Source: Bacteriovoracia bacterium
GTDB taxonomy: Bacteria; Bdellovibrionota; UBA1018; CAIPTA01
Reading direction: 5' to 3'
DNA length: 64,000 nt
Assembly (NCBI GenBank): GCA_050246755.1
Contig: JBFWVL010000001.1
Location: forward strand, 1,216,001-1,280,000
Position numbers and translations under genes: made by a program
Shown: positions 22,668-43,679 of the stretch, piece by piece
How the letters are laid out: each line of letters opens with the position of its first letter
How positions within the stretch are numbered: position 1 is the first letter of the stretch
The notes under the pieces: model-generated
What the model was told of the DNA's origin: nothing
What the model saw: only the letters and a program-made list of their open reading frames with translations
Databases searched by the model: none

Positions 22668-22676
22668 GTAGCTCTC

Positions 22677-24617: not shown

Positions 24618-24627
24618 GACGAAATCC

Positions 24628-25924: not shown

Positions 25925-25933
25925 AAATTTTCC

Positions 25934-27037
25934 TTAATGCCCGTACATTACGGCGATCGAAACCGCCGTTGCTAGAATATTAATGAGAGCCAAGGGGACC
26001 AAAACTTTCCATCCCAGCCACATCAGCTGATCGTAGCGGAAGCGCGGAAGCGTAAAGCGAACCACGATGAAGAAAAGCATAAAGAGGATTACTTTTAGCC
26101 AGAACGTAAGCACTTGGCCGATCACCACCGCCCAATAGAGCATTTGGTCGGTGAGATGGAAATGGCTCAGGAGCGCGTGCAGGCCGGGGGCTTGCCAGCC
26201 GCCAAGAAAAAATGTCGCCACTAACCCGGAGGCGGTGATCATATGCGCGTACTCGGCCATGAAAAACAGCGACCACTTCATGCCGCCGTACTCCAGGTGA
26301 TATCCGGCCACGATCTCGGCTTCCCCCTCGGGAAGGTCGAAGGGCAGACGGTTGGTTTCGGCGAAAGCGGCCACGATAAAAATCAATGCGGCGAGAGGCT
26401 GATGAAAGATTCCCCAGTTCGGCAGAAAGCTAATCTGCTGGCCGAAGATCATCAGGGGGCCGCCCTGACTAACGGCCATCTCCATTAAGTCTACCGTATT
26501 GTAGTTCATGATGATGGCCACAAGGCTCATCCCCATCGCGAGCTCGTAGCTGATCATTTGGGCCGTGGAGCGAAGTCCGCCGAGCATGGAATATTTATTA
26601 TTAGAAGCCCACGAAGCCACGATGATTCCATATACGGCAAGCGAAGATATCGAAGTGATGTATACGAAGCCCACGTTCATCGAAGAAAGCTGCAGGGAAA
26701 TGATCGTTCCATTTACGTCGATCACCGGACCGAAAGGAACCACGGCGAAGGTCATGAAAGCGGGAACTACGCAAATTCCGGGAGCCAACAAGTAGTACCA
26801 CTTGCGCACGTGACCGGGCACTAGGTCTTCCTTGAAGATAAACTTCACGGCATCGGCGATCGATTGCAGAAGGCCGAATGGGCCCACGCGGTTCGGTCCG
26901 GTTCGATTCTGCATCCAGGAACAGATTCGGCGTTCGGCCCACGCCATTAACGGCGCCACGTGCAGGAGCACTAAAAGCACCATCGCGAGCTTTCCCACCA
27001 TCGCTATCAATAAAATATTCGGAACGGTCATTTCCAC
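25934..27037 (-). CDS. nuoH: NADH-quinone oxidoreductase subunit H
   Basis: ERR..QNRTGPNRVGP, AQMISYE, AETNRLPFDLPEGEAEIVAGYHLEY and TLPRFRYDQLM. Confidence 0.97.
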   Translation of the reverse strand: MEMTVPNILLIAMVGKLAMVLLVLLHVAPLMAWAERRICSWMQNRTGPNRVGPFGLLQSIADAVKFIFKEDLVPGHVRKWYYLLAPGICVVPAFMTFAVVPFGPVIDVNGTIISLQLSSMNVGFVYITSISSLAVYGIIVASWASNNKYSMLGGLRSTAQMISYELAMGMSLVAIIMNYNTVDLMEMAVSQGGPLMIFGQQISFLPNWGIFHQPLAALIFIVAAFAETNRLPFDLPEGEAEIVAGYHLEYGGMKWSLFFMAEYAHMITASGLVATFFLGGWQAPGLHALLSHFHLTDQMLYWAVVIGQVLTFWLKVILFMLFFIVVRFTLPRFRYDQLMWLGWKVLVPLALINILATAVSIAVMYGH

Positions 27038-27040
27038 GAC

Positions 27041-28459
27041 TTAACTCACTTTCCGCGACGATTCGATCAACGCGCCGATCAGGCTCGCGAGGGGCCGGCT
27101 CATGCCGATCGGCTGCGTAACGGCCTGGAAGGTTTGCTGCATTCCCTGATAATTCACGAAAGTTCCGGCTTTTTCGTACGTCGAGAGACCGGGCAATACG
27201 AATTGGTAACCGAGAAGCTCTTCCTTCAAAAACAACCCGATCGCCACCGCTTTTTTCGCTTTCTTCGCCAGCCCGTAAGGGGGGCGCACTTTGCCCGCGC
27301 TCACGAAGAAGCAAAGGTCGAATTTCGCCGGATCGAATTCCGCCGAAGCCTTAAATCCCACGGCTTCGAGTCCCTTCAAATTAGGAGATTTATCTTTACG
27401 GCGCAGCAAGTGATCGAGCGGCTTATCTTCTGAGCTCGAATTCACGGTTGGGCTATAGGAAAAATAGGCGGCGTTTGGAAATGCTTTCTTCAGCGCATGA
27501 GCTTCTTCTTGCGTGGCATCAGCGCACACGAAGAAAGCAATCGACTTGGCGCCATCCATCATTTCTTTTACGGCGGGAAGCGCTTCGTTCCACATCATGC
27601 CCTTAGGATTTCCGCCACGGAGATCCGTAGGCCCCAGTACGCGAGAGGGAGTGTGCACGTGGTGAAAGCCGTAACGGCCTTCATCGCACATCCACCACTT
27701 ATTCACTTCCATATTCACGCGCGGCTCCAGACGGAAAACCACGCCGGAATCCTGCGAACCAAGAATATTACAGCCCTGCGCACAGCCGTCGCATACGCTT
27801 TCGGCCGTTTTGAGATACCACACGCGCTTTTTGAAGCGGAAATCCTTGGTGGTGAGAGAGCCCACAGGGCAAACATCAGCCAGCCCGCCGGCATAAGCAG
27901 TTTGCAGGGGCTTATCATCGATCGTGATGATCTCAGTGCTGTTTCCGCGCTGCTCGGCGATCATTTCGTGGATACCACCCACTTCGTCGCAATAGCGGAT
28001 GCAGCGGGTGCAGTGAATGCAACGATTCATATTCTTCTTGATCGAAGGGCCCATATCCACATCGATAAAGGTACGGCGGAAAAACTGGTTCCGGGTGTCT
28101 TCGGCGCCGTGGTTATAGCTATACTCCTGAAGGCTGCATTCTCCGGCCTGATCGCAAATCGGGCAATCGAGCGGATGGTTAGCGAGCAAAAATTCCTGCA
28201 CGCCACCCACAGATTTTTTTACTTTTTCGGAAGTGGTGGAAATTTTCATTCCATCGGCGCAGGGCGTGGAACAAGCGGTCACCAGTTTCTTCTGGCCCTC
28301 CACTTCCACCAAGCACATTCGGCACTGTGCCACGATCGAAAGACCGTCGTGGTAGCAATAGCGGGGAATATGATTGTTTTTGGCACGGTCGGTAGCCTGG
28401 ATGATCTTCTCACCCGGCTTAAACTCTACCTGCACTCCGTCGACTATAATGTTCGGCAT
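27041..28459 (-). CDS. nuoG: NADH-quinone oxidoreductase subunit G (short, 472 aa)
   Basis: PRYCYH..CRMCLVE..TAC (N1b), HPLDCPICDQAGEC (N5), CIHCTRC..CPVG (N4) and CDGCAQGC..MCDEGR (N7). Confidence 0.92.
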   Translation of the reverse strand: MPNIIVDGVQVEFKPGEKIIQATDRAKNNHIPRYCYHDGLSIVAQCRMCLVEVEGQKKLVTACSTPCADGMKISTTSEKVKKSVGGVQEFLLANHPLDCPICDQAGECSLQEYSYNHGAEDTRNQFFRRTFIDVDMGPSIKKNMNRCIHCTRCIRYCDEVGGIHEMIAEQRGNSTEIITIDDKPLQTAYAGGLADVCPVGSLTTKDFRFKKRVWYLKTAESVCDGCAQGCNILGSQDSGVVFRLEPRVNMEVNKWWMCDEGRYGFHHVHTPSRVLGPTDLRGGNPKGMMWNEALPAVKEMMDGAKSIAFFVCADATQEEAHALKKAFPNAAYFSYSPTVNSSSEDKPLDHLLRRKDKSPNLKGLEAVGFKASAEFDPAKFDLCFFVSAGKVRPPYGLAKKAKKAVAIGLFLKEELLGYQFVLPGLSTYEKAGTFVNYQGMQQTFQAVTQPIGMSRPLASLIGALIESSRKVS

Positions 28460-28473
28460 TTTATTCCTTTAAT

Positions 28474-29763
28474 CTAGTGGCTATAGCTCGAGCTTCCAAA
28501 AGGGCAACGCTTCTCGTTCACGTGTTGCTCGTATTCGGTTCGGAATTTTTTCACCATTGAACGCAACGGCCAGGCAGTGGCTTCGCCGAATGCACAGATC
28601 GTGGTTCCGTCCATGTTATTGCAAATGTCTTCGATCAGATCGAGGTCGCCAATATTCCCCTCGCCCCGCTCGAGGCGCAGGTGAAGATCTTTGAGCCACA
28701 TGGAGCCCTCGCGGCAAGGTGTACATTGTCCGCAGCTTTCCACTTGGTAAAAATGCGCGGTGCGGATCGCCACCTTGAGAATACAAGTAGCGTCGTCTAT
28801 TACCATAATGCCGGCCGAGCCGAGCATGGAACCAGCCTTCGCCAAAGAATCAAAATCCAGGTTCACACTGCATTCTTCGGCCGTGAGCACCGGCGAGGAG
28901 GATCCGCCGGGAAAAGCCGCCTTCAGCTTCCGGCCCTTCCAAATTCCCCCACAATCTTCGTTGATCAACTGCATGAGAGGGTAACCGAGGGGACGCTCGT
29001 ATAGGCCAGGACGGTTTACGTGTCCAGAAATACAGAACAGCTTCATGCCGTGATTGCGCTCGGGACCGAACTGCTTGAACCAGGCGGCGCCGCGATTAAT
29101 GATCATCGGAATGCAGGCTAAGGTTTCCACGTTATTCACTACCGTGGGGCAACCGAACAAACCGATAGCGGCCGGGAAAAAAGGAGGCTTGATTCGCGGT
29201 TCGCCCCGCTTTCCCTCGAGGGAATTCAGGAGCGCGGTTTCTTCTCCGCAAATATACGCGCCGGCCCCGCGATGCACGATCATGTCGAGCTGGTATCCCG
29301 TGCCGTTCACGTTTTTTCCAAGCAAACCGGCCTTATAGGCTTCTTCGATCGCTTTATCGAGGATCTTTGCCTCCTTCACGTATTCACCGCGGATATAGCA
29401 GTAAATCATATGAGCATTGATCGCCATCGCGGCGATGATGGCACCTTCGATCATGAGATGAGGCTGGTAAGCCATGATCGCGCGATCCTTAAAAGTGCCG
29501 GGCTCAGATTCGTCGGCGTTGATCACGAGATACTTCGGTTTATCTGAATTCTTCGGAATGAATCCCCATTTCGTGCCGCAAGGAAATCCGGCGCCCCCGC
29601 GCCCGCGAAGGCCGCTTTCCTTTACCTCGGCCAAAACTTTTTCTGGCCCCATTTCCACGGCCTTCGGAAGAGCCGTATAACCCGATTCATTCTTTTTATA
29701 GGCGTCGAGGCCTTCCACACCGGCCTGGCCGTAATATTTAGAGAATACGATTTCCTGCTGCAT
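28474..29763 (-). CDS. nuoF: NADH-quinone oxidoreductase subunit F
   Basis: GRGGAGFP, NADESEPGTFKDR, GAGAYICGEETA and SCGQCTPCREG..ICAFG. Confidence 0.98.
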   Translation of the reverse strand: MQQEIVFSKYYGQAGVEGLDAYKKNESGYTALPKAVEMGPEKVLAEVKESGLRGRGGAGFPCGTKWGFIPKNSDKPKYLVINADESEPGTFKDRAIMAYQPHLMIEGAIIAAMAINAHMIYCYIRGEYVKEAKILDKAIEEAYKAGLLGKNVNGTGYQLDMIVHRGAGAYICGEETALLNSLEGKRGEPRIKPPFFPAAIGLFGCPTVVNNVETLACIPMIINRGAAWFKQFGPERNHGMKLFCISGHVNRPGLYERPLGYPLMQLINEDCGGIWKGRKLKAAFPGGSSSPVLTAEECSVNLDFDSLAKAGSMLGSAGIMVIDDATCILKVAIRTAHFYQVESCGQCTPCREGSMWLKDLHLRLERGEGNIGDLDLIEDICNNMDGTTICAFGEATAWPLRSMVKKFRTEYEQHVNEKRCPFGSSSYSH

Positions 29764-30236
29764 TAGCGGAACTCCTCAAGCACTTTATCGAGCTGTTTCT
29801 CATCGAAATTCTCGTGGTAGTCGTCGTTGATCTGGCAAACCGGCGCCGTGCCGCAAGATCCGAGGCACTCCACTTCGGAAATAGTGAACATTCCATCCTT
29901 GGTGGTACCACCCAGAGAAACACCGCACTTCTTTTCCGCGCGGTGAATGAGGTCTTCGGAGCCGCGCAGCCAGCATGCGATGTTATTGCAAAACTGGAGG
30001 TTATACTTGCCCACCGGCTTGGTGTGGAACATGTGATAAAACGTAACCACTTCTTTCACCCGCGTTTTCGGAATCGCGAGAAAATCGGCCACATCTTGCA
30101 TCGTATCGTCGGAGATCCAGCCGCGGTCTTTTTGGGCCGCATGCAGAGCCGGTAAGAGCATGGCTAGCTTATTGGGATACATTCCTTGAATGCGGTCCAT
30201 CTCGGCGTAAAATTCGTTTCCAAATTTCTTTTCCAT
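29763..30236 (-). CDS. nuoE: NADH-quinone oxidoreductase subunit E
   Basis: VVTFYHMF and the 2Fe-2S ligands CNNIAC..ECLGSC. Confidence 0.96.
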   Translation of the reverse strand: MEKKFGNEFYAEMDRIQGMYPNKLAMLLPALHAAQKDRGWISDDTMQDVADFLAIPKTRVKEVVTFYHMFHTKPVGKYNLQFCNNIACWLRGSEDLIHRAEKKCGVSLGGTTKDGMFTISEVECLGSCGTAPVCQINDDYHENFDEKQLDKVLEEFR

Positions 30237-30237
30237 A

Positions 30238-31479
30238 TTAGCGGTCTAACTCCCCGGCAATAATATTCACGGAACCAATCACGGCGATCACGTCGCCCAC
30301 GTTTTCACCCTTCACCATCTCGTCTACGGGCTGGAACATGAAGAAAGAGGGGGCGCGGATACGCAAGCGGTAGGCCTTGGGACCGCCGCGGCTGATCGCG
30401 TAGAAGCCCATTTCGCCATTTGGGCCCTCCATAGGGCAGTACGCTTCTCCTGGAGGAACATCGAAACCTTCCATGAAAAATTTGAAATGGTGGATCAAGG
30501 ACTCCATCGAATTATAAACGCGTTCCTTTTCCGGAATCTTCACGCGTTTATCGTCGGCCCAGATTGGGCCTTTGGGCATTTTCTGCGCGATCTGGCGGAG
30601 CATGCGGATGGATTCGAAAATTTCCGCCATACGCACCAGATAGCGATCGTACACGTCGCCGCCCTTTGCCACCGGAACGTCGAACTCCAGCTCGCGGTAC
30701 GCAAGATAAGGGCGGTCCCTGCGTAGGTCGATATTTACGTTGGAAGCGCGGAGGCAAGGGCCCGTCATCGAGTAAGCGAGTGCCTGTTCGGCGGTGAAAA
30801 CGCCCACACCGCGGGTACGATCCACCCAGATACGGTTGTTCGTGAGCAGCTTGTCGAGCTCCTTAAAACATCTTTCGGTTTCATCAAGCCAAGCGTTCAG
30901 ACGGGGAATGAAGCCATCGGGCAAATCACCAGAAAGACCGCCCACGCGGGTATAGGTGGTGGTCAACCGTGACCCACAGAGACTTTCGATCAAACTATAA
31001 GCTTCTTCGCGCTGGTGGAATCCGATGAGAAAGTAGGTCATGGCGCCAAGGTCGAAGGCATTGATGCCCACGCAAATGATATGATCAATGATCCGCGCCA
31101 TTTCGCAAACCATCGTGCGAATCCACACGTTGCGCGGAGGAATCTCGATGCCCATGAGCTTCTCGATCGTGGTCACGTAGGCCACGTTATTCTGCAGGGC
31201 CGAACAATAATTCAGGCGGTCCGTATAGGGAATAAACTTATGGTAGGTTTTCACCTCGCCGAGCTTTTCCATCCCGCGATGCAAATAACCGATCTCACAT
31301 TTGCTCTCCTCCACCACTTCGCCGTTGAGCCGGCAAACGATACGAAGCGTTCCGTGGGTCGCCGGATGCTGGGGACCGATATTGATAAGCATCTGCGAAC
31401 TCTCGAAGATATCGCCATTATCGTCGTCTTCGAAGGCATCGCCTTTTCTAGGGAGCTGGAGTCCGGTTAGTTTATCCAT
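30238..31479 (-). CDS. nuoD: NADH-quinone oxidoreductase subunit D
   Basis: GPQHPATHG, GYLHRGMEK, DRLNY, FDLGA and C-terminal GELDR. Confidence 0.97.
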   Translation of the reverse strand: MDKLTGLQLPRKGDAFEDDDNGDIFESSQMLINIGPQHPATHGTLRIVCRLNGEVVEESKCEIGYLHRGMEKLGEVKTYHKFIPYTDRLNYCSALQNNVAYVTTIEKLMGIEIPPRNVWIRTMVCEMARIIDHIICVGINAFDLGAMTYFLIGFHQREEAYSLIESLCGSRLTTTYTRVGGLSGDLPDGFIPRLNAWLDETERCFKELDKLLTNNRIWVDRTRGVGVFTAEQALAYSMTGPCLRASNVNIDLRRDRPYLAYRELEFDVPVAKGGDVYDRYLVRMAEIFESIRMLRQIAQKMPKGPIWADDKRVKIPEKERVYNSMESLIHHFKFFMEGFDVPPGEAYCPMEGPNGEMGFYAISRGGPKAYRLRIRAPSFFMFQPVDEMVKGENVGDVIAVIGSVNIIAGELDR

Positions 31480-32132
31480 TATTCACGCTCCAATACGGTC
31501 TTGGCCGAGCCTGGAGAGCCGATTGTTTTTTCTTTACGCAGCTCGTGCCGCGACATTCTCTCCGCCGATGGATCAAGACCGAAGCTATCGGTGGATGCCG
31601 ATCCCTCGAAGCGCTGGTAGCGCTTAATGGGATAGTCCTTACGCTGGGGATGCCCCACCCAGCGCTCGTCGAGCAGAATGCGGTGCAGGTGGGGATGGCC
31701 CGAAAATCTCACGCCGTACATATCGAACACCTCGCGCTCCAGCCAATTGGCGGCCCTCCAGATGCCCACCACCGAGGGAGTTTCTTCTTCTTCTCTCACC
31801 CGCACCTTAATACGGATGCGGTCGTGGTTCTGCAGGGAAAAAAGCTGGTACACCACCACGAAGCGGTGCGCCCCGCCGGGGTTCTTCAAAGTGCCGAGGC
31901 CGTAGTCCGCGATCTTATCCAGCGGAGGATTATCATCGTAAGCGGTGAGATCAGAAAGGAAGCTGTACTCGAGGCCCTCTTCCGTGCGGATCGACTGCAA
32001 AAATTCTACGATTTTTTCTTTGCGCACGAAAAAAATAGGATCATCGGTATTTTCCGATACTACTTCCTCAATGGCATCGCCGTAACGGGCTTTGATCCTG
32101 TCGATTTTTTCCTTCGGAAAATCCATCTTCAT
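31479..32132 (-). CDS. nuoC: NADH-quinone oxidoreductase subunit C
   Basis: [33 protein letters not shown] and GHPQRKDYP. Confidence 0.95.
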
Positions 32133-32611
32133 TGCAGCATCGCCTTACTTTTTTTAATTTTTTCCTGGAGCCGCATCACGCCGTGAATCACGCCCTCAGG
32201 AGAGGGCGGGCAGCCGGGAATATAGATGTCCACCGGAATTACTTCATCCGCACCCTGCATAACACTGTAGGTATCGAAAATGCCGCCGGAAGAAGAACAA
32301 GCGCCCATTGCGATCACCCACTTAGGATCGGCCATTTGCTCATAGAGAGTCTTGAGCACGGGGCCCATCTTCTCCGTGATCGTGCCGGCGATGATCATCA
32401 TATCGCTCTGACGAGGAGAAAAGCGCACCACCTCGGCGCCGAAACGCGCAAGATCGTAGTCGGCCGAAAGCGTGGCCATCATCTCGATTCCGCAGCAGCT
32501 CGTACCGAAAGGATAGGGCCAGAGAGAGTTGGCTCTCGCCCAATTTACAAAATCTTCCAGTCTAGTAGTTAAAACATCCGGTGCGCCGTCTTTTGGCATA
32601 TCGCCCCCCAT
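32129..32611 (-). CDS. nuoB: NADH-quinone oxidoreductase subunit B
   Basis: [23 protein letters not shown] and IPGCPP. Alternative start at ATG 32599. Confidence 0.97.
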
Positions 32612-32636
32612 TCAGGCCGCTTCTGCGGCCCAGAAA

Positions 32637-32999
32637 CTATTCCCACTCGAGCCCGCCGCGGCGCCATTCGTATAAAAAGGCCACGGTAATCATGGTCATG
32701 AAAAATAGCATTACGCCGAGGATGAAAAAGTTCACCCCGAGAAATTTCCGGTACGCGAGGGCCCACGGAAAGAGCAGGGCTACCTCCACATCGAATAATA
32801 GAAAAGAAAGTGCCACGAGATAGAAGCGAACCGAAAAACGCTTTCTCGCGTCTCCACTAGGAGGTACGCCGCATTCGTATACGGAATTTTTGAATTTATT
32901 AGGTCGCTTTGGTCCCAAGAGAGCCGCGCCGAAAATTACGGCGAACGAGATGCCTAACCCCACGAGAAACAAAAGCAAAACCGGAAAATACCCGGACAT
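32637..32999 (-). CDS. nuoA: NADH-quinone oxidoreductase subunit A
   Basis: YECG, RFYLVALSFLLFDVE and YEWRRGGLEW. Confidence 0.96.
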   Translation of the reverse strand: MSGYFPVLLLFLVGLGISFAVIFGAALLGPKRPNKFKNSVYECGVPPSGDARKRFSVRFYLVALSFLLFDVEVALLFPWALAYRKFLGVNFFILGVMLFFMTMITVAFLYEWRRGGLEWE

Positions 33000-33041: not shown

Positions 33042-34496
33042 TTATTTAAGAAAGACTTTTGCAGTTTCGAAAAGTAAGGCAAATACCCGATGCCAAAGGA
33101 ATCCAAGCGCGGCGAGAGCAACGATTGCGACGGCTAACGAGAGCCACTCCAACGCGCCGTACCGAAACAGAACAAGAGGCGCAGTGTTTGTCGACGACGA
33201 AGCGCGTTGGCGGAATAGTAAATCCGTTCCCACGCGAATGGAAATTAGCGAAAGGGTGGCCACCAGCAGTACTTCGGCCGCGAGGAAAAATAGGGATTTC
33301 TGTTCCATCATCGCCGCCAAAAGATTCAATGCCATGGGAAATCCAGGTAAACCAGGAATGCAAAGCGGGCTGGCGAGCGCCAATAATAGCAATAACCCCG
33401 AAGAGCGAAACGTGCGCGCGGCACCGTAGACATCTTTTAAATTTTCGCCGCCGGCACTTTCTTGAAATCGTCCCCAGTTAAAACCCAAAAGACTGGTCCA
33501 AACAAAAACCGAGGCAAAAGCATAGGTAATGGAGGATGCACTAAGTACGGTCGGCAATGCACCGGCCACTAAAATGGCCGACCACTGCGCGCCCACTAGG
33601 GCACTGAAAAGACGCTTTGAATTTTCCTGCGTGAGCGCCACTAGGGCCAGCCAAAAGCCACCGCTAAGCCCACAGAGCTGTAACGTGCGCAGTCCCTCGG
33701 AAACTTCCCCGGGCCGAGCCTTGCCAAAAACCTCCACTCCCATTTTCCACAAAGCGAGGGTAACCGTTCCCTGCCAGATCACGGAAAGGGTTACCACTAC
33801 CGGCCAGGGCATTCCTTGGTCGCGATCCACGTGCGCAAAGTGAAATGGAAAGAGTCCGGCGGCCATCACGAAGGGCAGGCAAAGCGCAAACACCACGAGA
33901 AGCGCGCTGAGGGAATAAATCGATTGCGCGTGAAGAAAAGAAGAGATCACATCATAGTGAACGCCGCCGGCGACCACGGCCAGAGCCGTAGCCGCGCCAA
34001 ACCCACCCGCCATTACCAGAGAAGCTTGAATCCAGTACTTCAAGACGGCTTCCCCTTCACCGCGACCCCGAAACGCCAGGCCGCCGAGGAAAAGAGATAA
34101 CCACGATCCGCAAACCAGAAGGATAATCGAAAGGGTCATCTGTCGGGAAAGCAGCAAGAGATCACAAAGCATTACCAGCGTGGAAAGCAGGAAAAGAACT
34201 TCGTGTTTTCTTTTTGCGGGTAACTCTTTGGTGGCCACAACGCCGCGCCCCAGGAGAAGGGCCGCCACGAAAAGAGCCGCACGCGGCAAACGGAAAAGCG
34301 GTTGATCTTCCAGAAGCCCGAACCAGATTTGGGACTGATCGGCCGATTGGCCCACGGCCAAGGTTGCCATTGCCGCCAAAAATCCGAGGCTTGAAAGAAA
34401 TTCAATCGCCGTGCGCGAGCGAGAACTGCGGTTAAAAAGCAGCGCCACTCCTTGCGCTAGCGTGGCTAATCCGACGACTAAAATCGATAAGGGCAT
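33042..34496 (-). CDS. Divergent NuoN-like antiporter-fold subunit
   Basis: About 14 hydrophobic segments. EAVLKYW, FPFHFAHVDRDQGMP and ALTQENSKRLF align by eye to NuoN EASVKYF, PFHMWAPDVYEGAP and QTNLKRLM. Confidence 0.8.
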   Translation of the reverse strand: MPLSILVVGLATLAQGVALLFNRSSRSRTAIEFLSSLGFLAAMATLAVGQSADQSQIWFGLLEDQPLFRLPRAALFVAALLLGRGVVATKELPAKRKHEVLFLLSTLVMLCDLLLLSRQMTLSIILLVCGSWLSLFLGGLAFRGRGEGEAVLKYWIQASLVMAGGFGAATALAVVAGGVHYDVISSFLHAQSIYSLSALLVVFALCLPFVMAAGLFPFHFAHVDRDQGMPWPVVVTLSVIWQGTVTLALWKMGVEVFGKARPGEVSEGLRTLQLCGLSGGFWLALVALTQENSKRLFSALVGAQWSAILVAGALPTVLSASSITYAFASVFVWTSLLGFNWGRFQESAGGENLKDVYGAARTFRSSGLLLLLALASPLCIPGLPGFPMALNLLAAMMEQKSLFFLAAEVLLVATLSLISIRVGTDLLFRQRASSSTNTAPLVLFRYGALEWLSLAVAIVALAALGFLWHRVFALLFETAKVFLK

Positions 34497-34508
34497 GCCG
34501 ACCTCAAA

Positions 34509-35963
34509 CTAATTGCCATTTAATCCTTTCAGCAGGGCCGCCACCGATACTCCCATGGGCCCCAGAAGCAGGCTCGGCAAAACCCCTAAAACCAAAAGCA
34601 CCAGACCAAGCGGTGCAATCGCAAGAATCTCTTCCCAAACCAAGTCGTGAAACTCTCCGCGATCTCCATCACCGGCCCCGGCGTCGAGACGAAAAAACAT
34701 AATGCTCATCCCAGCAAAAGCAACCACCGGAACTGCTAGCGTAACCACGAGCAGCGGCCAGCTATGCACCCCGCTCAGCGACCAAATAACGAAAAGTACC
34801 CCGTAGAATCCAATGGAAACCGGCAGAAAGAGCGCAAAAAGGGAGGCCGCCGCCGTGCTGAGCGCAAAGGCAGGAAATTCACGGATTCTTTGGAGCGGTA
34901 AGGGGAATTTTCTTCTCTCGTGACAAGCAAGCACGAAGAGCATGAACGGAATAGAGAGCGTTTGGAAAAATAGGAGAATAAGAGAGCCGTGCCACCCTTT
35001 GGGATTTAAATTGAACAAGCCGATGGCGATGAACGAGCAAACGGTCTGCTGCAACCAAAATACGCGATCGCGCGCCTGGCGTGCGCCGAGAAAATTCAGC
35101 GCACAGTAAAGGGCGCCGATGGAGAAAAAGGCCAGAAGGTAATGGCCGAACCGCAAAAGCTCGCCGGGAAAAAGCTCCACCACGAAACGAGAGAGCAAAG
35201 TAAATCCCAGAAGCGGCTGCAGCGCTAGCGGCACCGCTTTTTCTACGGATTCCATTTCGAATATCCGGCGGGTGCTGCCGTGAAAGGGAAATATTCCGGC
35301 GCCGATCCCGAATGCCAGCAGCAATAATCCAAAGCCGATCGACCCCGGCAGTACCATATAGGTATCGCCCGATAGTCGGAACCACTCCCCGATGGAACCA
35401 CGGAATCCCTCCGAGAACGCCAGCACGCAAAGCAATAACGACAATGAAGCGATGGTAGAGAGAAAAGCCGCCTCGCGTACCGGCTCAATGCGATTTTCCT
35501 TTGCGTCTACCCCGGAAAATATAAATCGGGGGAGTAATGCGCCGGCAAAGAAAACAGAGAAAAGCAAAAGGTGATCAGCGCCTAGGGCACCGAGCACACA
35601 AGTCAAGTAGGCGGAAAGGCTGGCTACCGAGGCGCGGGATTTCTCGAGCATTCCCCTCGCCAGAAAGTGATAGCAAACGGTTACGGAAGAGACCGCTAGC
35701 GCCAATATTCCCGAATGAAATACCCAGCGGAGGCCCGTGTGATTCGACCAAGCGCTCTGGGCGAGAATCGCCGGAGAAAGCACGCTTCCGGCGTATTCGT
35801 TGGGCGAATAGAAGCCGATGGCCAAAAACAGAAAACAAACCCAAGAGAGAAGGTGCACCAACAACGAAAATGCCCAGAGCTTCTTCCCGCGCACGGGACC
35901 GCAAGCCGCCACCGTGACGAGCAGAGGCAAAAACGTAGCGATTAGTCCCGCCCAGCCTTTCAC
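34509..35963 (-). CDS. Divergent NuoM-like subunit (M2)
   Basis: DHLLLFSVFFAGALLPRF, IFPFHG, LPVSIGFYG and DLVWEEILAIAPL..LGVLP resemble NuoM. GTG start overlaps the upstream TGA (GTGA). Confidence 0.75.
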   Translation of the reverse strand: MKGWAGLIATFLPLLVTVAACGPVRGKKLWAFSLLVHLLSWVCFLFLAIGFYSPNEYAGSVLSPAILAQSAWSNHTGLRWVFHSGILALAVSSVTVCYHFLARGMLEKSRASVASLSAYLTCVLGALGADHLLLFSVFFAGALLPRFIFSGVDAKENRIEPVREAAFLSTIASLSLLLCVLAFSEGFRGSIGEWFRLSGDTYMVLPGSIGFGLLLLAFGIGAGIFPFHGSTRRIFEMESVEKAVPLALQPLLGFTLLSRFVVELFPGELLRFGHYLLAFFSIGALYCALNFLGARQARDRVFWLQQTVCSFIAIGLFNLNPKGWHGSLILLFFQTLSIPFMLFVLACHERRKFPLPLQRIREFPAFALSTAAASLFALFLPVSIGFYGVLFVIWSLSGVHSWPLLVVTLAVPVVAFAGMSIMFFRLDAGAGDGDRGEFHDLVWEEILAIAPLGLVLLVLGVLPSLLLGPMGVSVAALLKGLNGN

Positions 35964-37303
35964 AGGATCCCCCCGGCCAGCTGCGTGGCCACGACAATGA
36001 AACACATCAGGAAAACTCCATACCCAGCGAAAGCGGCCGGGGCCGACTCGAGAGAGGATTCCGCTCCCGGCTCAGGAGGACGATCATCCACAAAAATTCT
36101 TCGGCAGATATGCACGTTGGCGCAGAAGTAAAAAAACCAAAGCAAGCCGAATACGATGCCGTAGCTGATACCGAGATCGAGGGAACGAGCGCCGATCCCA
36201 CTGAAAATCTGAAACACCGGGGTGCCGGGCACTCCGAGGATAAGCGCGAAAAGAATTCCCACGAAAACCTTCTGTAGCGGGCGCACCACTTTGACCACCG
36301 AAGCATAAAGTACTAGCCCGGTGAATACTGGTACGAAGAGACAGGTAAAGTACGCGGATAGTACTAAGCTTGTCTTCGAGACTCCCACCGAAACCAAAAT
36401 GAGCGAAAAGAAAAAACTCGGTAGGCTTCCCAGCATTTTTCGCCTGGATCCGGCCGCAAAAAGACCGCTGATAGAAAAGGCGCAGCCGGAGATTCCCAGT
36501 AGATACAAAGCCAGCTTCTGCTTCCACCCCATATCGGGATAAACCACAGAAAAAAGCGTGGATATCTTCAAGGCCACCGCGCTGATGAAGGTAACCAAGG
36601 TAACGGTTACGCCTTCCGGAAGATTTTCCACCGCCATACTGAACCATCGGGACCATGGCGGAAGCGGAATCGAGAGCACTACAAGGCCCAGCCAGATAAA
36701 TAAACCGAGCGAAGAACCGGAGCGGGGGCCGAATAGCATATCCTTCGCGCCGAATTCCACCACGCCCCATACAATCATCAGCAGTCCCAACAAGAAGTAG
36801 AGGCTATACATACGGCGGGAAATTCTATCTCCCATCTCACGACTGGCCCCGGCAATGGCAAAGCGAATTAGGTAGAAGAACACCGCCGCCGCCAGCAAAA
36901 GCAAACCCCCAGTAGCTACCGCGTTGTTAGAAATTATAAAAAGGCTGGTAAACGCCTGCGCCAGCGATAGCAGCACGCTTACCACTCGCAGGCCGCCCGC
37001 CACCGCCCCCATCGCATGGGCAAAAAGAAAGCAGAGTTCTGCGGTGAGCAAAAAACCAAGCCGGAAAGAATCAAGCGAGAGCACGAATTCGAGCGGATAA
37101 CCATCAGCAAGCGAGGTAGAAATTTCAATTACCGCTCCGCCAAATACAACCGGGCGTAAAAGCACGATGAGAAGTAGAGCGCGAAGGCTCGACGCGATGA
37201 TCCCCGGGGAAACGAGCCTTTTGTGAAATGCATTCGGCAAAGGTATCGCGGCGGCGAAGGGCAAAACTATATACAGTAAGAATATTAGCCGTTCTAAGCT
37301 CAT
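35960..37303 (-). CDS. Divergent NuoM-like subunit (extra, M1)
   Basis: LSLDSF, IPLPPWSRW, SRRKMLG, LGVPGTPVF and RRIF resemble the NuoM/MrpD scaffold. ATGA overlap. Confidence 0.65.
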   Translation of the reverse strand: MSLERLIFLLYIVLPFAAAIPLPNAFHKRLVSPGIIASSLRALLLIVLLRPVVFGGAVIEISTSLADGYPLEFVLSLDSFRLGFLLTAELCFLFAHAMGAVAGGLRVVSVLLSLAQAFTSLFIISNNAVATGGLLLLAAAVFFYLIRFAIAGASREMGDRISRRMYSLYFLLGLLMIVWGVVEFGAKDMLFGPRSGSSLGLFIWLGLVVLSIPLPPWSRWFSMAVENLPEGVTVTLVTFISAVALKISTLFSVVYPDMGWKQKLALYLLGISGCAFSISGLFAAGSRRKMLGSLPSFFFSLILVSVGVSKTSLVLSAYFTCLFVPVFTGLVLYASVVKVVRPLQKVFVGILFALILGVPGTPVFQIFSGIGARSLDLGISYGIVFGLLWFFYFCANVHICRRIFVDDRPPEPGAESSLESAPAAFAGYGVFLMCFIVVATQLAGGIL

Positions 37304-39063: not shown

Positions 39064-39384
39064 CTAATGCCGCAAACTATCTTCTTCATCCACATCCAGC
39101 GTTCCGCGAAATCGGCTACAGCGGTGCAATACCAGCAGACCCACCGCCACGAGCGCGGGAACCATTCCCAATGCCACTAACGAGAGCACGATGAGATCTC
39201 CGCCGCCGGAAGAAAAATATTGCGAGAATAAAAATCCACATGCCACCACGGCCTTAAGTGCGGTGGCCTGACCCACCAGCCCCCATGCCGCCACCCGGCG
39301 CAGCGCGATGGCCGAAAGGCCCGCCACAAATACGGCCAAGAGCAAGATCACGTTAATTTTGTTTGCCACCGAGGTTAAATCCAT
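39064..39384 (-). CDS. Divergent NuoK-like subunit
   Basis: ATG at 39384 (TAATG overlap) gives 106 aa with 3 TMs. FVAGLSAIALRR and GTLDVDE..SLR match the NuoK pattern. Confidence 0.75.
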   Translation of the reverse strand: MDLTSVANKINVILLLAVFVAGLSAIALRRVAAWGLVGQATALKAVVACGFLFSQYFSSGGGDLIVLSLVALGMVPALVAVGLLVLHRCSRFRGTLDVDEEDSLRH

Positions 39385-39878
39385 TACCGCTCCCTCCGCA
39401 CAAGGAAGAATCCTCCGGTAACGATTACGATCAGGAAAAGCAGCGGAATCACCGCTAGCAGCCAGTCGGAGGTCCAGATTTTTTCGTGGAGCAGAGACAA
39501 ACTTGGCGCCGGCGTCACCCCCGGTGGCATCAACTCCTCGAGCTCCAAGATCGCCAGCGCGCCGGTGACCACCGAGCAAAGGCCTAGCCATAGGAAAAAC
39601 AGGCGATACAGCCAATCGGCACGGCGATTGCGGGCCGGGCGCGCGGGAAGCAGTTCTTGGGTGCGAAAATAAAGATAAATAGCGAAATCGGCCGAAAGAA
39701 ATACCGCAATCATCATAATCCCAAAGTATCCGCCACTCATGAGTTCTACGGCCGCGCCCAAGCCAATGGAGCAAAGAATAGATCCCCAGAGTAAACGTTC
39801 GGTGGAATCGGCGGTGATCGCCATAATCGCGGAAATCAATGCCAACGCCAAACAGCTGCCAACAAAAAATGAGATCAT
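39384..39878 (-). CDS. Divergent NuoJ-like subunit
   Basis: 164 aa with 5 TMs, ALISAIMAIT, and C-terminal IWTSDWLL..IVIVTGGFFL. Sits between the I-like and K-like genes. Confidence 0.72.
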   Translation of the reverse strand: MISFFVGSCLALALISAIMAITADSTERLLWGSILCSIGLGAAVELMSGGYFGIMMIAVFLSADFAIYLYFRTQELLPARPARNRRADWLYRLFFLWLGLCSVVTGALAILELEELMPPGVTPAPSLSLLHEKIWTSDWLLAVIPLLFLIVIVTGGFFLVRRER

Positions 39879-40348
39879 CGTCTCACCTCGTAAGTACGAA
39901 TACGGGTGATGTCTTTATCGCTCTTCTGGCCGCCACCACGAAATACGGCGATTAAATCTTTCGTGCTCTCGGTAACGATTTCAAATTCTTTGGAATAGGA
40001 AAGGCTAGCCTCGGGACAGATCTCGATACAAACACCGCACGAAAAGCATTTTCCCAAATGAATATTGAATTCTTGCACGCGAATCGTACCGTCGCGCAGG
40101 TTCTCGGAAGTAAAATCAATTGCCTTCACCGGACAGGCCGGAACGCAAAGACCGCATCCACTGCACTTCGATAAATCATTGGTCACGTAGCCCTTATAGC
40201 TAGTGAACATGTCTAATGGGGCCTTGGCGGACACTAGGTCTGGATACTTTTCCACGACGCTTTTGTAACGATGCTTCGTACGGCGCAGAAAGCCGAAATT
40301 GATTTTCAGCGTGCTCTTGAGGGCGTTAATTACCTGCCTGACCTTCAT
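39875..40348 (-). CDS. NuoI-like 2[4Fe-4S] subunit
   Basis: EKYPD, CSGCGLCVPACP and CFSCGVCIEICP. ATG 40348 overlaps the upstream stop (ATGA). Confidence 0.88.
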   Translation of the reverse strand: MKVRQVINALKSTLKINFGFLRRTKHRYKSVVEKYPDLVSAKAPLDMFTSYKGYVTNDLSKCSGCGLCVPACPVKAIDFTSENLRDGTIRVQEFNIHLGKCFSCGVCIEICPEASLSYSKEFEIVTESTKDLIAVFRGGGQKSDKDITRIRTYEVRR

Positions 40349-41280
40349 CCGCGCACCCCCACCCAAACGGCTTCGAGAAAGAATCCGATGAGACATAGAC
40401 GCAATAGCCAGCGGGCCGCCAATTCACTGGCGTCGGCCGAGCGAATCTTAGGAAAACTAGCCTGCAGAAGGGTGAACACGAATATTCCGGCCGCCACTTT
40501 CAGCGGAAAGAGAACTTTCACGATGAGCCCGCTGGCCCCTCCGCAAAAAACGTATACCCAGAAACAAATCAAAGAGAATACCCACATTTTCTGCACGAAA
40601 ATCGTGATGTATTGCATCGAGTGATTGAGGCTCTGCTCATCTTGCAGCTGCACTGGACTTTCCGTGGCGAAAAGGAAAATGGAGCAGAAGGCGGTTATGC
40701 CGCAAAGGAAAAGACCCGGACTGCTCAGCAGCGCGTGATAGGGGAAATAAATCTGAAAATCCGAAATCGCGCTCAAGTTGAGCTGACCCACCCTTAGGGT
40801 TACGGCGAAAACCGATAGCAGCAATCCCGAAACTCCCATCGCCCGAAGCAAAAGCCGGCGGCGGCGGTCGAAACGCTCGCGTGAATCGGCGGTGGCATGC
40901 ACCAGCAGCGCCTCTAAAGCGGCCGCGATCATCGGAAAAAGCAGCAGGAGTGGAAGATCAATTTGATCGCCGCCCTCCGGGTAAGTTACCGCCAGCAAAG
41001 CCAGCAGGAATACTATGGGAAGAATTCGCCAAACCAAGGAGGCGAGACGTATCCGAAACGGCAGGGCCAATAAATCCGCCGGCTTCTTTTTCCGGGTTTT
41101 CTGAAAATCTTTCCAGACCTGAAAAAAATCCGTTTGCCCATGCCGGCCGGGCCCGTCGCGATGCTGCACGCGAGCAGCGACGAAGCGTTCGCAAAAAAGA
41201 AGGAAGAAGGTTCCCCCAAAGAGAAAGAGTAGCGAGCCCACGAGCGCCGCCCCGGCGAGCAAGAAATCTAGCGCACTCAT
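40345..41280 (-). CDS. Divergent NuoH-like subunit
   Basis: ERFVAARVQHRDGP, FFQVWKDFQK and SFPKIR match NuoH. The acidic TM5-6 loop is absent. Confidence 0.82.
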   Translation of the reverse strand: MSALDFLLAGAALVGSLLFLFGGTFFLLFCERFVAARVQHRDGPGRHGQTDFFQVWKDFQKTRKKKPADLLALPFRIRLASLVWRILPIVFLLALLAVTYPEGGDQIDLPLLLLFPMIAAALEALLVHATADSRERFDRRRRLLLRAMGVSGLLLSVFAVTLRVGQLNLSAISDFQIYFPYHALLSSPGLFLCGITAFCSIFLFATESPVQLQDEQSLNHSMQYITIFVQKMWVFSLICFWVYVFCGGASGLIVKVLFPLKVAAGIFVFTLLQASFPKIRSADASELAARWLLRLCLIGFFLEAVWVGVRG

Positions 41281-42380
41281 TTGTCTACCTCCGAAAAGGA
41301 GATATCGAGCGAATGAATCACGAGGAAAGCGTCTTCCGCGTGAATTCCGCGCAGCAGGCGCGGCAGCACCTGAACCGCCATAGCCGAAGGGCAGAAAAAA
41401 CTTACTTGCGACGGCTGCGAACGGCCATCGGATTCAACCATCGCGTAGATAGCTCCGCGAGGGCCCTCCACGCCACAAACTGCTTTTCCGGGCGCCGGGC
41501 GCACGTCTAGACCCACCCGGATGCGGTGGTTACCCGAAGGAATATGGCGAAATACGGATTCGATGAGCTGAGCCGACTGCAAAATTTCCCGCTTGCGAAT
41601 GTGTGCGCGGTCGAACGCGTCTCCCAGATAATTCCTCGAGGTGTCTAGCATCATCTCTGTGCCACGATAAGCGCCGTAGGGGCGCGAAACCCGAAGATCG
41701 CAGTCCGCTAAGCCGCTCGCACGCGCGTTAGGACCAGTAATATTCCAATTTTTAACCATCGCCGCATCTAACTGGCCCAAACCCCGGGTGCGCTTTTCGA
41801 AAAACGGGTGCGTAAGGAGGGAGCTTTCTAGATCCGGCAAAAATTCTCTTAAGCTGGCCACGGCTTTTTCGATTTTAAAAAACCATCCGTCGGTGGCGTC
41901 GCTGATCACTCCACCAAGGCAAATAGAGCCGAAACCAAGGCGCGAACCGCAATACATCTCAAATATATCCGCGAAGCGCTCGCGTTCCCGGAGGCAGTGA
42001 TTCATGATCGCAGCCTGCCCGGCAGCCCTGGCCAAATTTCCGTAGTAATGAAGATGGCTGGCAATTCGGTTGAGCTCGAGCAGAATTAGGCGAATCTGCT
42101 CAGACCGAGCCGAGATTTCTATGCGCAGCAAGTCTTCGCAGGCCGAGGCAAGAGCGAAATTGAAGGCCGGAGCCGCGAGATAATCGAGGCGATCCATGTA
42201 ATTTAGGGCTTGGGCTAAAGGTAGCTGCAATGCGATCGCTTCCAGGCTACGGCGTCCATAACCCACGGTCATCCGGGCGTCGGCCACTAAGCCACCGTCT
42301 TCTTCGAGCTTCAGCCCGAAAGCACCGATTCCCTGCGTTCCCGCAAGATACATAGGAGTATAATCTAAAGTGGTCGCCAC
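41277..42380 (-). CDS. Divergent NuoD-like subunit
   Basis: MDRLDY, IRLILLELNRIASHL, ERERF, CGSRL, TGPNARASG, EGPRG and SLDISFSEVDK. No NiFe CxxC motifs. Probable GTG start at 42380 after GAAAGGGA. Confidence 0.88.
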   Translation of the reverse strand: MATTLDYTPMYLAGTQGIGAFGLKLEEDGGLVADARMTVGYGRRSLEAIALQLPLAQALNYMDRLDYLAAPAFNFALASACEDLLRIEISARSEQIRLILLELNRIASHLHYYGNLARAAGQAAIMNHCLRERERFADIFEMYCGSRLGFGSICLGGVISDATDGWFFKIEKAVASLREFLPDLESSLLTHPFFEKRTRGLGQLDAAMVKNWNITGPNARASGLADCDLRVSRPYGAYRGTEMMLDTSRNYLGDAFDRAHIRKREILQSAQLIESVFRHIPSGNHRIRVGLDVRPAPGKAVCGVEGPRGAIYAMVESDGRSQPSQVSFFCPSAMAVQVLPRLLRGIHAEDAFLVIHSLDISFSEVDK

Positions 42381-42757
42381 GTGGCGTCCCTTTCTGGAAT
42401 CATGCCGGCGAACTCTACTCCGTTGAAAGTGCGTAGCTCTTCTTCCCACCAAAGACTAAACGGCCAGAGGGCGCTGGGGCGCGGAAAGGCCGAAGAAGGA
42501 GCAACTTCCAGAATAAAAAAGATCGGTTCATTTCCGCACGTAAGCAGCAGCTCGATGGAAAGATTCGTGCCCGCGCCGGCCGTCGATAACCCATGCAAAG
42601 CGGGGCGTTCGCCAGAGGGTAGCGCGCCCCAATGCTCGAGCAATTTTGCCAGCTCCGAAGTTCCCGCCTGGACGCGAGAAACTTTATCTCCGGCCGCAGG
42701 GGTGCCCGGCACCTTCACGATGCCTCCCCAAATATTTTTTTCTCCGCCTGATCTCAC
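42365..42757 (-). CDS. Divergent, C-terminally shortened NuoC-like subunit
   Basis: SALWPFSLWWEEELRTFNGVEFAG matches [27 protein letters not shown] overlap. Confidence 0.72.
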   Translation of the reverse strand: MRSGGEKNIWGGIVKVPGTPAAGDKVSRVQAGTSELAKLLEHWGALPSGERPALHGLSTAGAGTNLSIELLLTCGNEPIFFILEVAPSSAFPRPSALWPFSLWWEEELRTFNGVEFAGMIPERDATWRPL

Positions 42758-43203
42758 GACGCGGACCTCCGGATTTTTTCCTGCAATTTAATCAGCGCAT
42801 GAATCAATGACTCCGGTCGTGGAGGACAGCCCGGAATAAAAAGATCCACGGGAATTATGGCCTCGAGACCCGGGATACGATGTTTTCCTTCGGCCGAAAA
42901 CATTCCACCGGTGCTGGCGCAACTGCCAACGGCCACCACGAATTTTGGATCGCGCATCTCGGCGTAAATCTTTTTCAGTTCTTCGGCAATGCCGGGAGTT
43001 ACCGGGCCTGAAACAAAGAGCACATCGGCGTTACGATGATCGGTCACAATCCGGCAACCGAGCCTCTCCCAATCGAATCTCGGTCCGGAAGCAGCTTCCA
43101 CTTCCAGGGTACAGCAAGAAAGCCCCACATGATAAACCCATAACGAATCCGCGAGCGCGGATTTTGGCTGAGAGGGAGCGGATTCTTTTTGGATCTCCAT
43201 CAT
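42754..43203 (-). CDS. NuoB-like N2 [4Fe-4S] subunit
   Basis: SLW..GLSCCTLE, RFDWERLG, PKFVVAVGSCASTGG and PVDLFIPGCPPRPE. Confidence 0.92.
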   Translation of the reverse strand: MMEIQKESAPSQPKSALADSLWVYHVGLSCCTLEVEAASGPRFDWERLGCRIVTDHRNADVLFVSGPVTPGIAEELKKIYAEMRDPKFVVAVGSCASTGGMFSAEGKHRIPGLEAIIPVDLFIPGCPPRPESLIHALIKLQEKIRRSAS

Positions 43204-43577
43204 TGGTTTTCCTTATCGGGCCACTCGAGATTGTCTATCCACTTCAGGTAGCTTTTACGGCCGCCGTACCAAAGTAGGGCCAGCATCAACGCGGGAAAAA
43301 TCAAAACCTTTCCCATCACCAGCCAGCGGTCGTGCATTTCGAGGGAAACTATTTTTTGCCGGTACGAAGCCCACATCGGCAAAGAGAGTGCGATTCCGCA
43401 CCAGAGCATTAGCAGCCAAAGAACGTGATAGAATGAACGGAACGCACCTTCCGGGGCGCCGTTCCCTGGCTCACGAATTCCCTGAACCTTTTCGAGACGA
43501 TCCCATAGCACGAGCACCAAAATGGCCACAAAAAGCAGCACTGCTGGAATTAAAAAGAGGAGAAATCTAGAATACAT
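43200..43577 (-). CDS. Divergent NuoA-like subunit
   Basis: Three TMs with SFYHV..LPMW and WYGGRKSYLKW (cf. YEWRRGGLEW). ATG 43577 gives 125 aa; alternative starts at 43616 and 43622. Confidence 0.72.
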   Translation of the reverse strand: MYSRFLLFLIPAVLLFVAILVLVLWDRLEKVQGIREPGNGAPEGAFRSFYHVLWLLMLWCGIALSLPMWASYRQKIVSLEMHDRWLVMGKVLIFPALMLALLWYGGRKSYLKWIDNLEWPDKENQ

Positions 43578-43679
43578 CTGCCGTCCTTGAGTTTCAGTGC
43601 CTCTTCCCACAGCCATATTCACCCGGCGGCAATGCCGATCCGGATCCTTGAAATGCCTAATGTGAGAACTGACCTAGGA

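Follow-up and report, generated by a model that had tools for sequence, protein, structure and literature searches.

How quinone reduction drives proton pumping through a chain of lysine and glutamate residues is the central open question of complex I, and the locus described here raises it from the other side: what becomes of a complex-I-like membrane arm from which that chain has largely gone, and what could selection be keeping it for? The DNA analysed, referred to below as the window, is a stretch of 64,000 nucleotides from a Bacteriovoracia bacterium (GTDB lineage Bacteria; Bdellovibrionota; UBA1018; CAIPTA01; NCBI GenBank assembly GCA_050246755.1, contig JBFWVL010000001.1, positions 1,216,001 to 1,280,000 of the forward strand). 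It carries a canonical nuoA-N operon and, adjoining it on the minus strand at 33042-43622, a second cluster of 12 tightly packed or overlapping genes in the order A-B-C-D-H-I-J-K-L-M1-M2-N. NuoE, NuoF and NuoG, the NADH-oxidising N-module, are absent from the 12-gene cluster and present only in the canonical operon. The four large membrane proteins of the second cluster are antiporter-like subunits, two of which have lost every residue of the central charged axis and a third all but one. The arm that they would form is, in our judgement, probably a non-pumping structural anchor or scaffold, its four subunits kept by selection in a 12-subunit complex-I-like assembly. The subunits lie in the window as follows.

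N2, 33042..34496, minus strand: NuoN-type antiporter-like subunit of 484 amino acids, with none of the four axis residues (V, A, Q, A instead)
M2, 34509..36005, minus strand: NuoM-type antiporter-like subunit, with none of the four axis residues (A, G, L, V instead)
M1, 35960..37303, minus strand: second M-type subunit of 447 amino acids, 14 transmembrane (TM) helices, breaks in TM7 and TM12
L2, 37300..39048, minus strand: NuoL-type subunit of 582 amino acids, with lateral helix and C-terminal anchor

The coordinates of M2 are those of its longest frame, in which a GTG start at 36005 gives a 46-nucleotide overlap with M1. The true start is probably the GTG at 35963, which would overlap the M1 stop as GTGA and yield a protein of 484 amino acids; the 4-nucleotide M2/M1 overlaps found in two orthologues match this start.

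Family models recognise these proteins poorly. At E <= 0.01, Pfam gave no match for 7 of the 12 cluster proteins, including the four large membrane proteins at 33042-39048, and PF00361 (Proton_antipo_M) was accordingly missing from N2, M2, M1 and L2. When the whole genome was searched, PF00361 rose above its cut-off for L, M and N of the canonical operon only; M2 was the only one of the four to match at all, with 18.3 bits against a cut-off of 21.5. Precomputed annotation places PF00361 on 3 of 53 N2 homologues. More sensitive comparisons establish that all four are genuine antiporter-like subunits with the NuoN, NuoM or NuoL fold. Orthologue alignments compared with canonical alignments from the same genome set (hhalign) matched N2 to NuoN at 99.3% (E 4e-20, 448 columns) and M2 to NuoM at 99.5% (E 2.6e-22, 471 columns). 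M2 alone matches the solved NuoM 8e9g_M at 2.9e-9 (phmmer), and the N2 family profile finds NuoN chains of solved structure, with 8e9g_N at 3.2e-18 and 3rko_N from E. coli at 3.6e-12. Run against 1.84 billion cluster representatives, the N2 profile retrieved 27 proteins at E <= 1e-30, followed by a plateau of ordinary NuoN-like proteins. The second-cluster antiporter-like families have invariant Pro, Gly and Trp positions, and the Pro and Gly at the TM7 and TM12 breaks are invariant within each family. From the full-length alignments and these break residues we infer that N2 and M2 share the 14-helix core with discontinuous TM7 and TM12.

Sequence comparison did not place M1 and L2: phmmer against the PDB, followed by profiles of 21 and 22 sequences against the PDB, returned nothing relevant, and hhalign against canonical L, M and N gave a probability of 1.1% or less. 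Structure predictions were made for these two subunits. The M1 model (predicted local distance difference test, pLDDT, 87.3; predicted template modelling score, pTM, 0.91) has fourteen helices with breaks at 212-218 in TM7 and 357-361 in TM12. Compared with Nad4, NdhD and NuoM chains (VIA), it superposes on Nad4 with Z 35.9 and a root mean square deviation (rmsd) of 2.8 A over 429 of its 447 residues, and on E. coli NuoM with Z 34.9 and rmsd 3.0 A. The L2 model is less certain (pLDDT 75.1, pTM 0.77, with low confidence over the last ~100 residues), and its best matches are E. coli NuoL (Foldseek 7p7e_L, E 1.3e-8; VIA Z 25.6, rmsd 6.7 A, 490 residues). It shows a helix break after residue 213, and the C-terminus of L2 aligns with the canonical motif of lateral helix and anchor. 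Leads from the ESM Atlas for M1 and L2 independently agree with both predictions. The four proteins have the structure of the antiporter-like family and lack its defining chemistry, as the initial annotation of this DNA had anticipated when it proposed that the fold was kept while the charges were lost.

Two further observations concern L2 and M1. In the L2 model the helical stretch before the last TM helix is about 17-20 residues longer than in E. coli NuoL (residues 5-537 of the model against 1-589 of NuoL, last TM from 557), with pLDDT <50 in that part; the longer helix (37300-37650), if modelled correctly, suggests a fit to an arm of four large subunits. A tree of all L, M and N families was also built and set aside, since the long-branch families group together and it is uninformative on the origin of M1.

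The axis is taken here as the glutamate of TM5, the lysine of TM7, the lysine of TM8 (histidine in L) and the lysine or glutamate of TM12, numbered after the window's canonical proteins. In E. coli the axis numbers presumably also include K247, K395, K265, E407, K399 and H254. The TM5 glutamate and TM7 lysine are N_E133 and N_K217, M_E144 and M_K234, and L_E144 and L_K229 in that species, and the accessible part of PMC3046159 reports that mutations of M_K234, L_K229 and N_K217 abolish function and that M_E144 or L_E144 changed to Ala or Gln abolishes activity.

None of the four residues is left in N2. Ten canonical, 3 intermediate and 8 N2-type sequences aligned with MAFFT show E148 replaced by Val, K234 by Ala, K264 by Gln and K422 by Ala. 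A profile alignment (HMMER) to 8e9g_N agrees for TM5, TM7 and TM12; it opens a 4-residue gap before TM8 and puts the TM8 lysine at T246 instead of Q242, both of which are uncharged. The invariant K251 is the counterpart of canonical R273 and not of the TM8 lysine, judged by its spacing from the conserved PFH histidine. The motifs from which the loss had originally been read (LVCGSW, VMAAGLFPFH, IWQGT and GFPMA) are all found in the translated N2 frame. The same state extends through the family, to a degree that chance would not produce. The four columns read E-K-K-K in 91 of 116 other full-length NuoN-like representatives, and among the N2-family representatives 14 of 15 have no charged residue there and the remaining one has a single charge. 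In the 53 genus-level N2 homologues no charge occurs at TM5, TM7 or TM12 (one gap each at TM5 and TM12), and the TM8 position is Gln in 52 and Arg in 1.

M2 is equally bare. E144 is replaced by Ala, K233 by Gly, K264 by Leu and E406 by Val, in agreement with the phmmer alignment to 8e9g_M, and His321 and His347 are lost as well. FFAGALLP, GIGAG and GFYGV, the motifs first remarked upon, occur in the translated frame, and the lysine of LLKLG has indeed gone. Only in the window's genus has M2 lost its TM7 Lys/Arg, which the relatives G008, G006 and G009 still have. Conserved charges that lie in a hydrophobic environment were sought by a hydropathy screen, which recovers the known axis residues of the canonical proteins and found 9 in canonical N, 9 in canonical M, 3 in N2 and 0 in M2. 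Two of the three N2 charges, K251 and R421, have off-axis canonical counterparts (R273 and R454), and R72 is unmapped; the screen revealed no conserved compensating charge at the axis positions of N2 or M2.

M1 was mapped by profile-profile alignment to the M subunits of less diverged, 11-gene second clusters (79% probability, E 1.6e-5, 351 columns). L136 takes the place of the TM5 glutamate, Ser that of the TM7 lysine and Val that of the TM12 glutamate; the TM8 lysine is kept as K246. N127 replaces D135, and the PFH histidine has become Ser. Helix boundaries in the model agree with this mapping, as TM5 (128-149) contains no acid and K246 lies inside TM8 (230-254). The initial annotation had seen neither a TM5 Glu nor a TM7 Lys in M1 and suspected the lysine of an ALK motif to be that of TM8; both points are borne out, and its proposal of parallel axis loss in three subunits stands at no residue of four in N2, none of four in M2 and one of four in M1. 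M1 has in addition a glutamate in the middle of TM3, Glu89 (codon 37037-37039), which is acidic in 21 of 21 sequences, is specific to the family and has no counterpart in canonical NuoM.

L2 is the subunit in which most remains. The TM5 glutamate is kept in all 22 sequences (Glu145, mid-TM5) and a TM7 lysine or arginine in 21 of 22 (position 214, at the break after helix 195-213). The TM8 position is Gln in 16, His in 3, Ser in 2 and a gap in 1 of the 22, the window protein having Gln227. Within the genus, Glu308 in TM11 is found in 19 of 22 and Arg or His at the TM12 lysine position in 18 of 22, so that retention exceeds what was first listed; these two positions are not conserved in three more distant orthologues and lie in or near the low-confidence stretch of the model. 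It had been suggested that at most the L-like channel might still work, on the strength of the motifs FIE, KRN and SKH. All three are present, and the TM5 glutamate and the TM7 Lys/Arg are compatible with this idea; KRN, however, holds a conserved lysine of the TM5-6 loop and no axis residue.

The loss goes beyond the antiporter-like subunits to the channel acids of NuoH, NuoA and NuoK and the loop histidines of NuoD. The remaining genes of the second cluster, and the canonical operon with which they are compared, are the following.

K2, 39064..39375, minus strand: NuoK-like (PF00420 E 2e-5, below cut-off), both membrane glutamates replaced
J2, 39384..39878, minus strand: membrane subunit in the NuoJ position, assigned by gene order and orthologues in 4 relatives, no Pfam match
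I2, 39875..40396, minus strand: NuoI-like protein with 2x[4Fe-4S] (Fer4 families), all eight Cys ligands kept
H2, 40345..41280, minus strand: NuoH-like (PF00146 3.5e-15), conserved channel and loop acids mostly replaced
D2, 41277..42452, minus strand: NuoD-like (PF00346 7.3e-49), HPxxHG histidines replaced, DRxDY Tyr kept
C2, 42365..42757, minus strand: short subunit of 130 amino acids in the NuoC position, assigned by gene order, no Pfam match; orthologues weakly match canonical NuoC (phmmer)
B2, 42754..43203, minus strand: NuoB-like (PF01058 1.4e-28), four cluster-N2 Cys kept in this genome
A2, 43200..43622, minus strand: subunit in the NuoA position, canonical Asp/Glu pair replaced, no Pfam match
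Canonical nuoA-N operon, 19598..32999, minus strand: 14 genes, all axis residues present
Canonical nuoN, 19598-21124, minus strand: within the canonical operon, with the unaltered counterparts of the N2 motifs
Canonical nuoM, 21108-22667, minus strand: within the canonical operon, with the unaltered counterparts of the M2 motifs

In each of the six 12-gene-type orthologues aligned, NuoK E41 has become Ala, Leu or Val and E77 Pro, Leu or Phe; NuoA D70 has become Trp or Leu and E72 Gly, Trp, Phe, Cys or Leu; and NuoH E165 and E227 are replaced together with most of the loop acids. Both histidines of the NuoD HPxxHG loop (beta1-beta2, at the quinone site) are replaced in all nine second-cluster NuoD-like proteins, and the tyrosine of DRxDY is kept in seven of them. 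The iron-sulfur sites have been treated differently: the eight cysteine ligands of NuoI (N6a/N6b) are kept in 10 of 10 second-cluster orthologues and the four cluster-N2 cysteines of NuoB in 8 of 9.

A locus that has lost so many conserved charges might be taken for a relic, and the way its genes have diverged argues otherwise. The four antiporter-like genes are intact not only in genomes of the same genus (M2 at 45-59% identity) but also in two further genera of that family (27-28%) and in another family, and all twelve frames are intact across genomes of two families at 20-60% identity. A relative in the public run X3 covers 19602-39048 with zero indels at a nucleotide difference of 5.5-12.9% by piece, and its N2 (P0072) differs at 14 of 484 residues (97% protein identity). 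Scaling the 451 differences in 7504 nucleotides to N2 gives ~87 changes, of which ~14 alter the protein, and a ratio of nonsynonymous to synonymous polymorphism (pN/pS) near 0.07, which is a rough estimate. Searches for related loci in genome contigs found 7 (32-62% identical) with an alignment query and none with a single-protein query, and 2 (58-60%) were found in metagenome contigs. Between the same genome pairs the canonical L, M and N show a nonsynonymous divergence (dN) of 0.15-0.24 and the second-cluster genes one of 0.36-0.60, with synonymous divergence (dS) saturated. Codon-model omega values of 0.03-0.04 for all seven genes were left unused, as the saturation of dS among genus-level genomes makes them untrustworthy. 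Judged by these comparisons, the second-cluster genes are under purifying selection and are not pseudogenes. In one genome, G001, L2 (L011:5177-6404) is found as two overlapping frames of 126 and 328 amino acids, both matching L2, possibly through a frameshift or an assembly error in this metagenome-assembled genome (MAG) of 630 contigs; the gene also runs into the contig end.

Among 401 Bdellovibrionota genomes sampled, 9 encode a fully stripped N2 (E <= 1e-40), and all 9 belong to one order; none was found in the other 392. Besides the window's own genome, the positives are 6 of 7 from its family and 2 of 2 from the sister family. In other families of the class, G026, G028 and G040 (L015, L016 and L017) carry an 11-gene second cluster with a single M in the same place upstream of nuoA, and the erosion of the axis in these clusters is graded: M and N read E-R-K-E and E-K-A-R in G028, S-R-P-Q and Q-Q-P-Q in G040, and Q-R-K-R and A-S-A-H in G026. 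G028 is also the genome in which M keeps all four axis residues and both histidines beside an L-like protein of 654 amino acids that a canonical NuoL query does not recognise, and the distal subunit may therefore have diverged first.

A FastTree phylogeny built from 154 NuoN-like proteins, with the canonical Bdellovibrionales clade as root, unites N2, the intermediates and 24 of 25 partly stripped representatives in a single clade of 53 tips (support 0.964), only one of whose members reads E-K-K-K. These partly stripped proteins, a sizeable group of 25 among the 116 NuoN-like representatives, lack between one and three of the axis residues; the TM12 Lys/Arg persists in nearly all of them, and one belongs to an Oligoflexia bacterium. 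Taken with the TM7 pattern of M2, the graded second clusters make the stripped state look like the end of a stepwise erosion, one that appears to have been repeated in several lineages in an old paralogous complex.

How the two M-type subunits might meet was approached by complex prediction. M2 with M1 scored 0.66, and the best of 3 controls 0.23; the 0.66 mark was reached by 116 of 157 solved complexes and by 2 of 215 mismatched pairs, counts that are only rough because own alignments were used. The runs for M2 and M1 agree in at least 84% of contacts, with partner pLDDT of at least 76. Since complexes of this kind have already been solved, the pass may reflect likeness or memory rather than binding. 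The predicted interface is of the canonical type, with TM12-14 of M2 against TM5-6 and the beta-hairpin of M1, and in it M2 F400, three residues before the TM12 Glu position, contacts M1 L136, the TM5 Glu position. If the model is right, M1 would lie distal to M2, as the gene order suggests, and a charged junction would have become hydrophobic.

Selection has preserved the fold of these proteins together with their helix breaks and mutual contacts, as well as the iron-sulfur sites of NuoI and, for the most part, NuoB, and the arm is for that reason read as a structural anchor. The membrane arm would run in the order N2-M2-M1-L2, in an assembly that would itself lack an NADH-oxidising module. 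Protonatable residues would no longer form a continuous chain between the quinone site and the distal subunits, the break presumably extending up to M1, which would make redox-coupled pumping by the known complex I mechanism impossible; the former charged junctions from TM12 to TM5 would now be hydrophobic contacts. Such an arm may anchor a small iron-sulfur peripheral module (B2-C2-D2-I2), with a selected function independent of pumping. The function of the module is most likely electron transfer uncoupled from the proton-motive force, a role suggested solely by the conserved cysteines.

Several observations weigh against this interpretation and have to be set beside it. The loss of one residue is no proof of inactivity, since the effects of N_E133A in E. 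coli were only modest according to the accessible part of PMC3046159. Among the canonical-invariant charges of N2 and M2 together, 2 of 18 buried and 14 of 41 exposed ones are kept (Fisher p = 0.11), so selective targeting of the axis is not statistically shown; the aligned sequences are better described as a wholesale divergence that includes complete axis loss than as a targeted removal. Both M1 and the middle part of L2 were mapped through weak profile alignments and helix boundaries and not by superposition at residue level. A proton path made of Ser, Thr, Tyr and water may run through N2 and M2. L2 retains Glu145, Lys214 and, within the genus, Glu308 and the TM12 Arg/His, and M1 retains Lys246 and Glu89, so some ion handling in the distal pair is possible. 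The NuoB-like protein of G002 (L009:11064-11498) has lost 3 of the 4 cluster-N2 cysteines (F, S, C, N), which means either that this lineage can do without redox chemistry or that there is an error in the MAG sequence. Finally, the clade in the NuoN tree may partly reflect long-branch attraction.

The explanation that survives best beside the anchor is that the second complex has no catalysis of its own and is a structural or regulatory partner of canonical complex I, by forming hybrid assemblies, by borrowing its NuoEFG or by serving as a scaffold for its assembly or organisation. We regard this as unlikely, though the layout of the locus gives it some substance. Only 42 nucleotides separate the N2 stop from the canonical nuoA, with a ribosome-binding site and no hairpin, the two clusters probably sharing a transcription unit, and the tight linkage upstream of nuoA is kept in relatives too. 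Over 32500-44000, which takes in the second cluster and the gap to nuoA, no match to a sigma-70-type promoter was found, where shuffled sequences lead one to expect 6.0 +/- 2.5, the consensus being of the E. coli type, which may not apply to this host; terminator-like sites are at chance level (27 vs 25.3). This pattern would suit a single long transcription unit, provided that the consensus holds for this organism. The cluster moreover does without NuoEFG while the adjoining operon has them, and the G002 NuoB would, if genuine, mean that redox may be dispensable. On the other hand, the cysteines of NuoI are invariant and those of NuoB nearly so, the cluster encodes a full complement of subunits and hence has no need for canonical ones, and the promoter result carries no more weight than its consensus. 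The stretch at 34001-40000 has the highest AT skew of the window (+0.30 to +0.35 on the plus strand), as expected from very hydrophobic minus-strand proteins rich in T-centred codons.

More doubtful still is that the arm goes on moving ions, either through the distal L2 together with M1 or along an unconventional path that needs neither Lys nor Glu. What speaks for it is L2, with its nearly invariant TM5 and TM7 charges, the occasional TM8 histidine and the in-genus Glu308 and TM12-break Arg/His, joined by Lys246 and the invariant Glu89 of M1. Yet N2 and M2 offer neither an axis residue nor a family-specific conserved buried charge at the axis positions, the NuoH, NuoA and NuoK acids that would transmit the signal are gone, and Glu308 and the TM12 Arg/His of L2 are unconserved outside the genus and sit in the low-confidence part of the model. 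That the cluster is a decaying, non-functional duplicate, its genes pseudogenes in the making, is strongly disfavoured and hardly credible: a dN ~1.7 to 3 times that of the canonical paralogues in the same genomes, the loss of most conserved charges and the apparently split L2 of G001 would fit decay, but twelve intact frames across two families, 19 kb without an indel in a relative 5.5-12.9% different in DNA, an N2 97% identical in that relative, the invariant Pro, Gly and Trp and the confident models all contradict it.

Beyond the anchor itself, one may speculate that a whole complex I has here been turned from an ion pump into something else, its hydrophilic axis now lined by small or hydrophobic residues and kept in that state across an order of Bdellovibrionota by purifying selection, for a role that requires the architecture and no proton translocation. 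We hold this wider reading at slightly below even chances; it could possibly take the form of an uncoupled redox module on an inert anchor, of an organiser of the true complex I, or of a channel that leads a hydrophobic substrate along the former axis. If this wider reading is true, the cluster would be a natural 'dead-pump' control for the coupling mechanism of complex I: a natural complex with the chain removed from the NuoH/A/K channel, from N2, from M2 and from most of M1, in which fold, contacts and iron-sulfur sites remain under selection. With its graded intermediates it would offer ready-made natural variants by which coupling residues may be separated from assembly residues, and it would imply that selection can act on the membrane arm for something other than pumping. 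There is also a warning for annotation. JGI labels many N2-type proteins 'subunit N', and a metabolic reconstruction that follows these labels would include a second proton pump where there is probably none.

No account of charge loss in a complex I paralogue turned up in our searches of the literature. The accessible part of PMC13147790 mentions two nuo clusters in Bdellovibrionota and, in that part, no residue loss, and two clusters are likewise mentioned in the accessible part of PMC4758237. Compared with canonical complex I (NDH-1, NuoA-N), the second cluster has the same A, B, C, D, H, I, J, K, L, M, N order, the NuoL, NuoM and NuoN folds including the breaks in TM7 and TM12, the lateral helix and C-terminal anchor of L2, and the iron-sulfur cysteines of NuoI and NuoB. 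It differs in having no NuoEFG, two M-type subunits and four antiporter-like proteins below the PF00361 cut-off, and in the axis that is gone from N2 and M2 and for three of four residues from M1, with the acids of NuoH, NuoA and NuoK and the loop histidines of NuoD replaced.

The '2M' type of complex I offers a parallel in subunit number; Chadwick et al. in 2018 reportedly described it as having an additional NuoM that keeps its pumping residues and a NuoL whose lateral helix is longer, and read it as pumping more protons. The cluster resembles these variants in its four antiporter-like subunits in L, M, M, N order, the L2 helix extension being suggested by the low-confidence model only; here, however, both M-type subunits are without the TM5 Glu, the TM7 Lys and the TM12 Glu. 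Complex-I-like enzymes of 11 subunits without an N-module are known from the NDH-1 of cyanobacteria and chloroplasts and from 'NUO11' clusters (accessible parts of PMC4758237 and PMC3144371). They share with the second cluster the absence of NuoEFG genes, and the less diverged relatives G026, G028 and G040 have exactly 11 genes; but those enzymes are proton pumps with an intact axis, whereas the axis here is stripped. The Mrp, MBH and MBS modules have the antiporter-like fold in common with it (MrpD gives Z ~34 to M1, and 7qru_D matches the N2 profile at 4.5e-15), yet the cluster has no genes of MrpE, MrpF or MrpG type and does have those of NuoB, NuoD, NuoH and NuoI type, and NuoM/ND4 and NuoL chains score equally well or better. 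NDH-1, MBH, MBS and Mrp all keep the relay, and the second cluster would work like no described relative of complex I.

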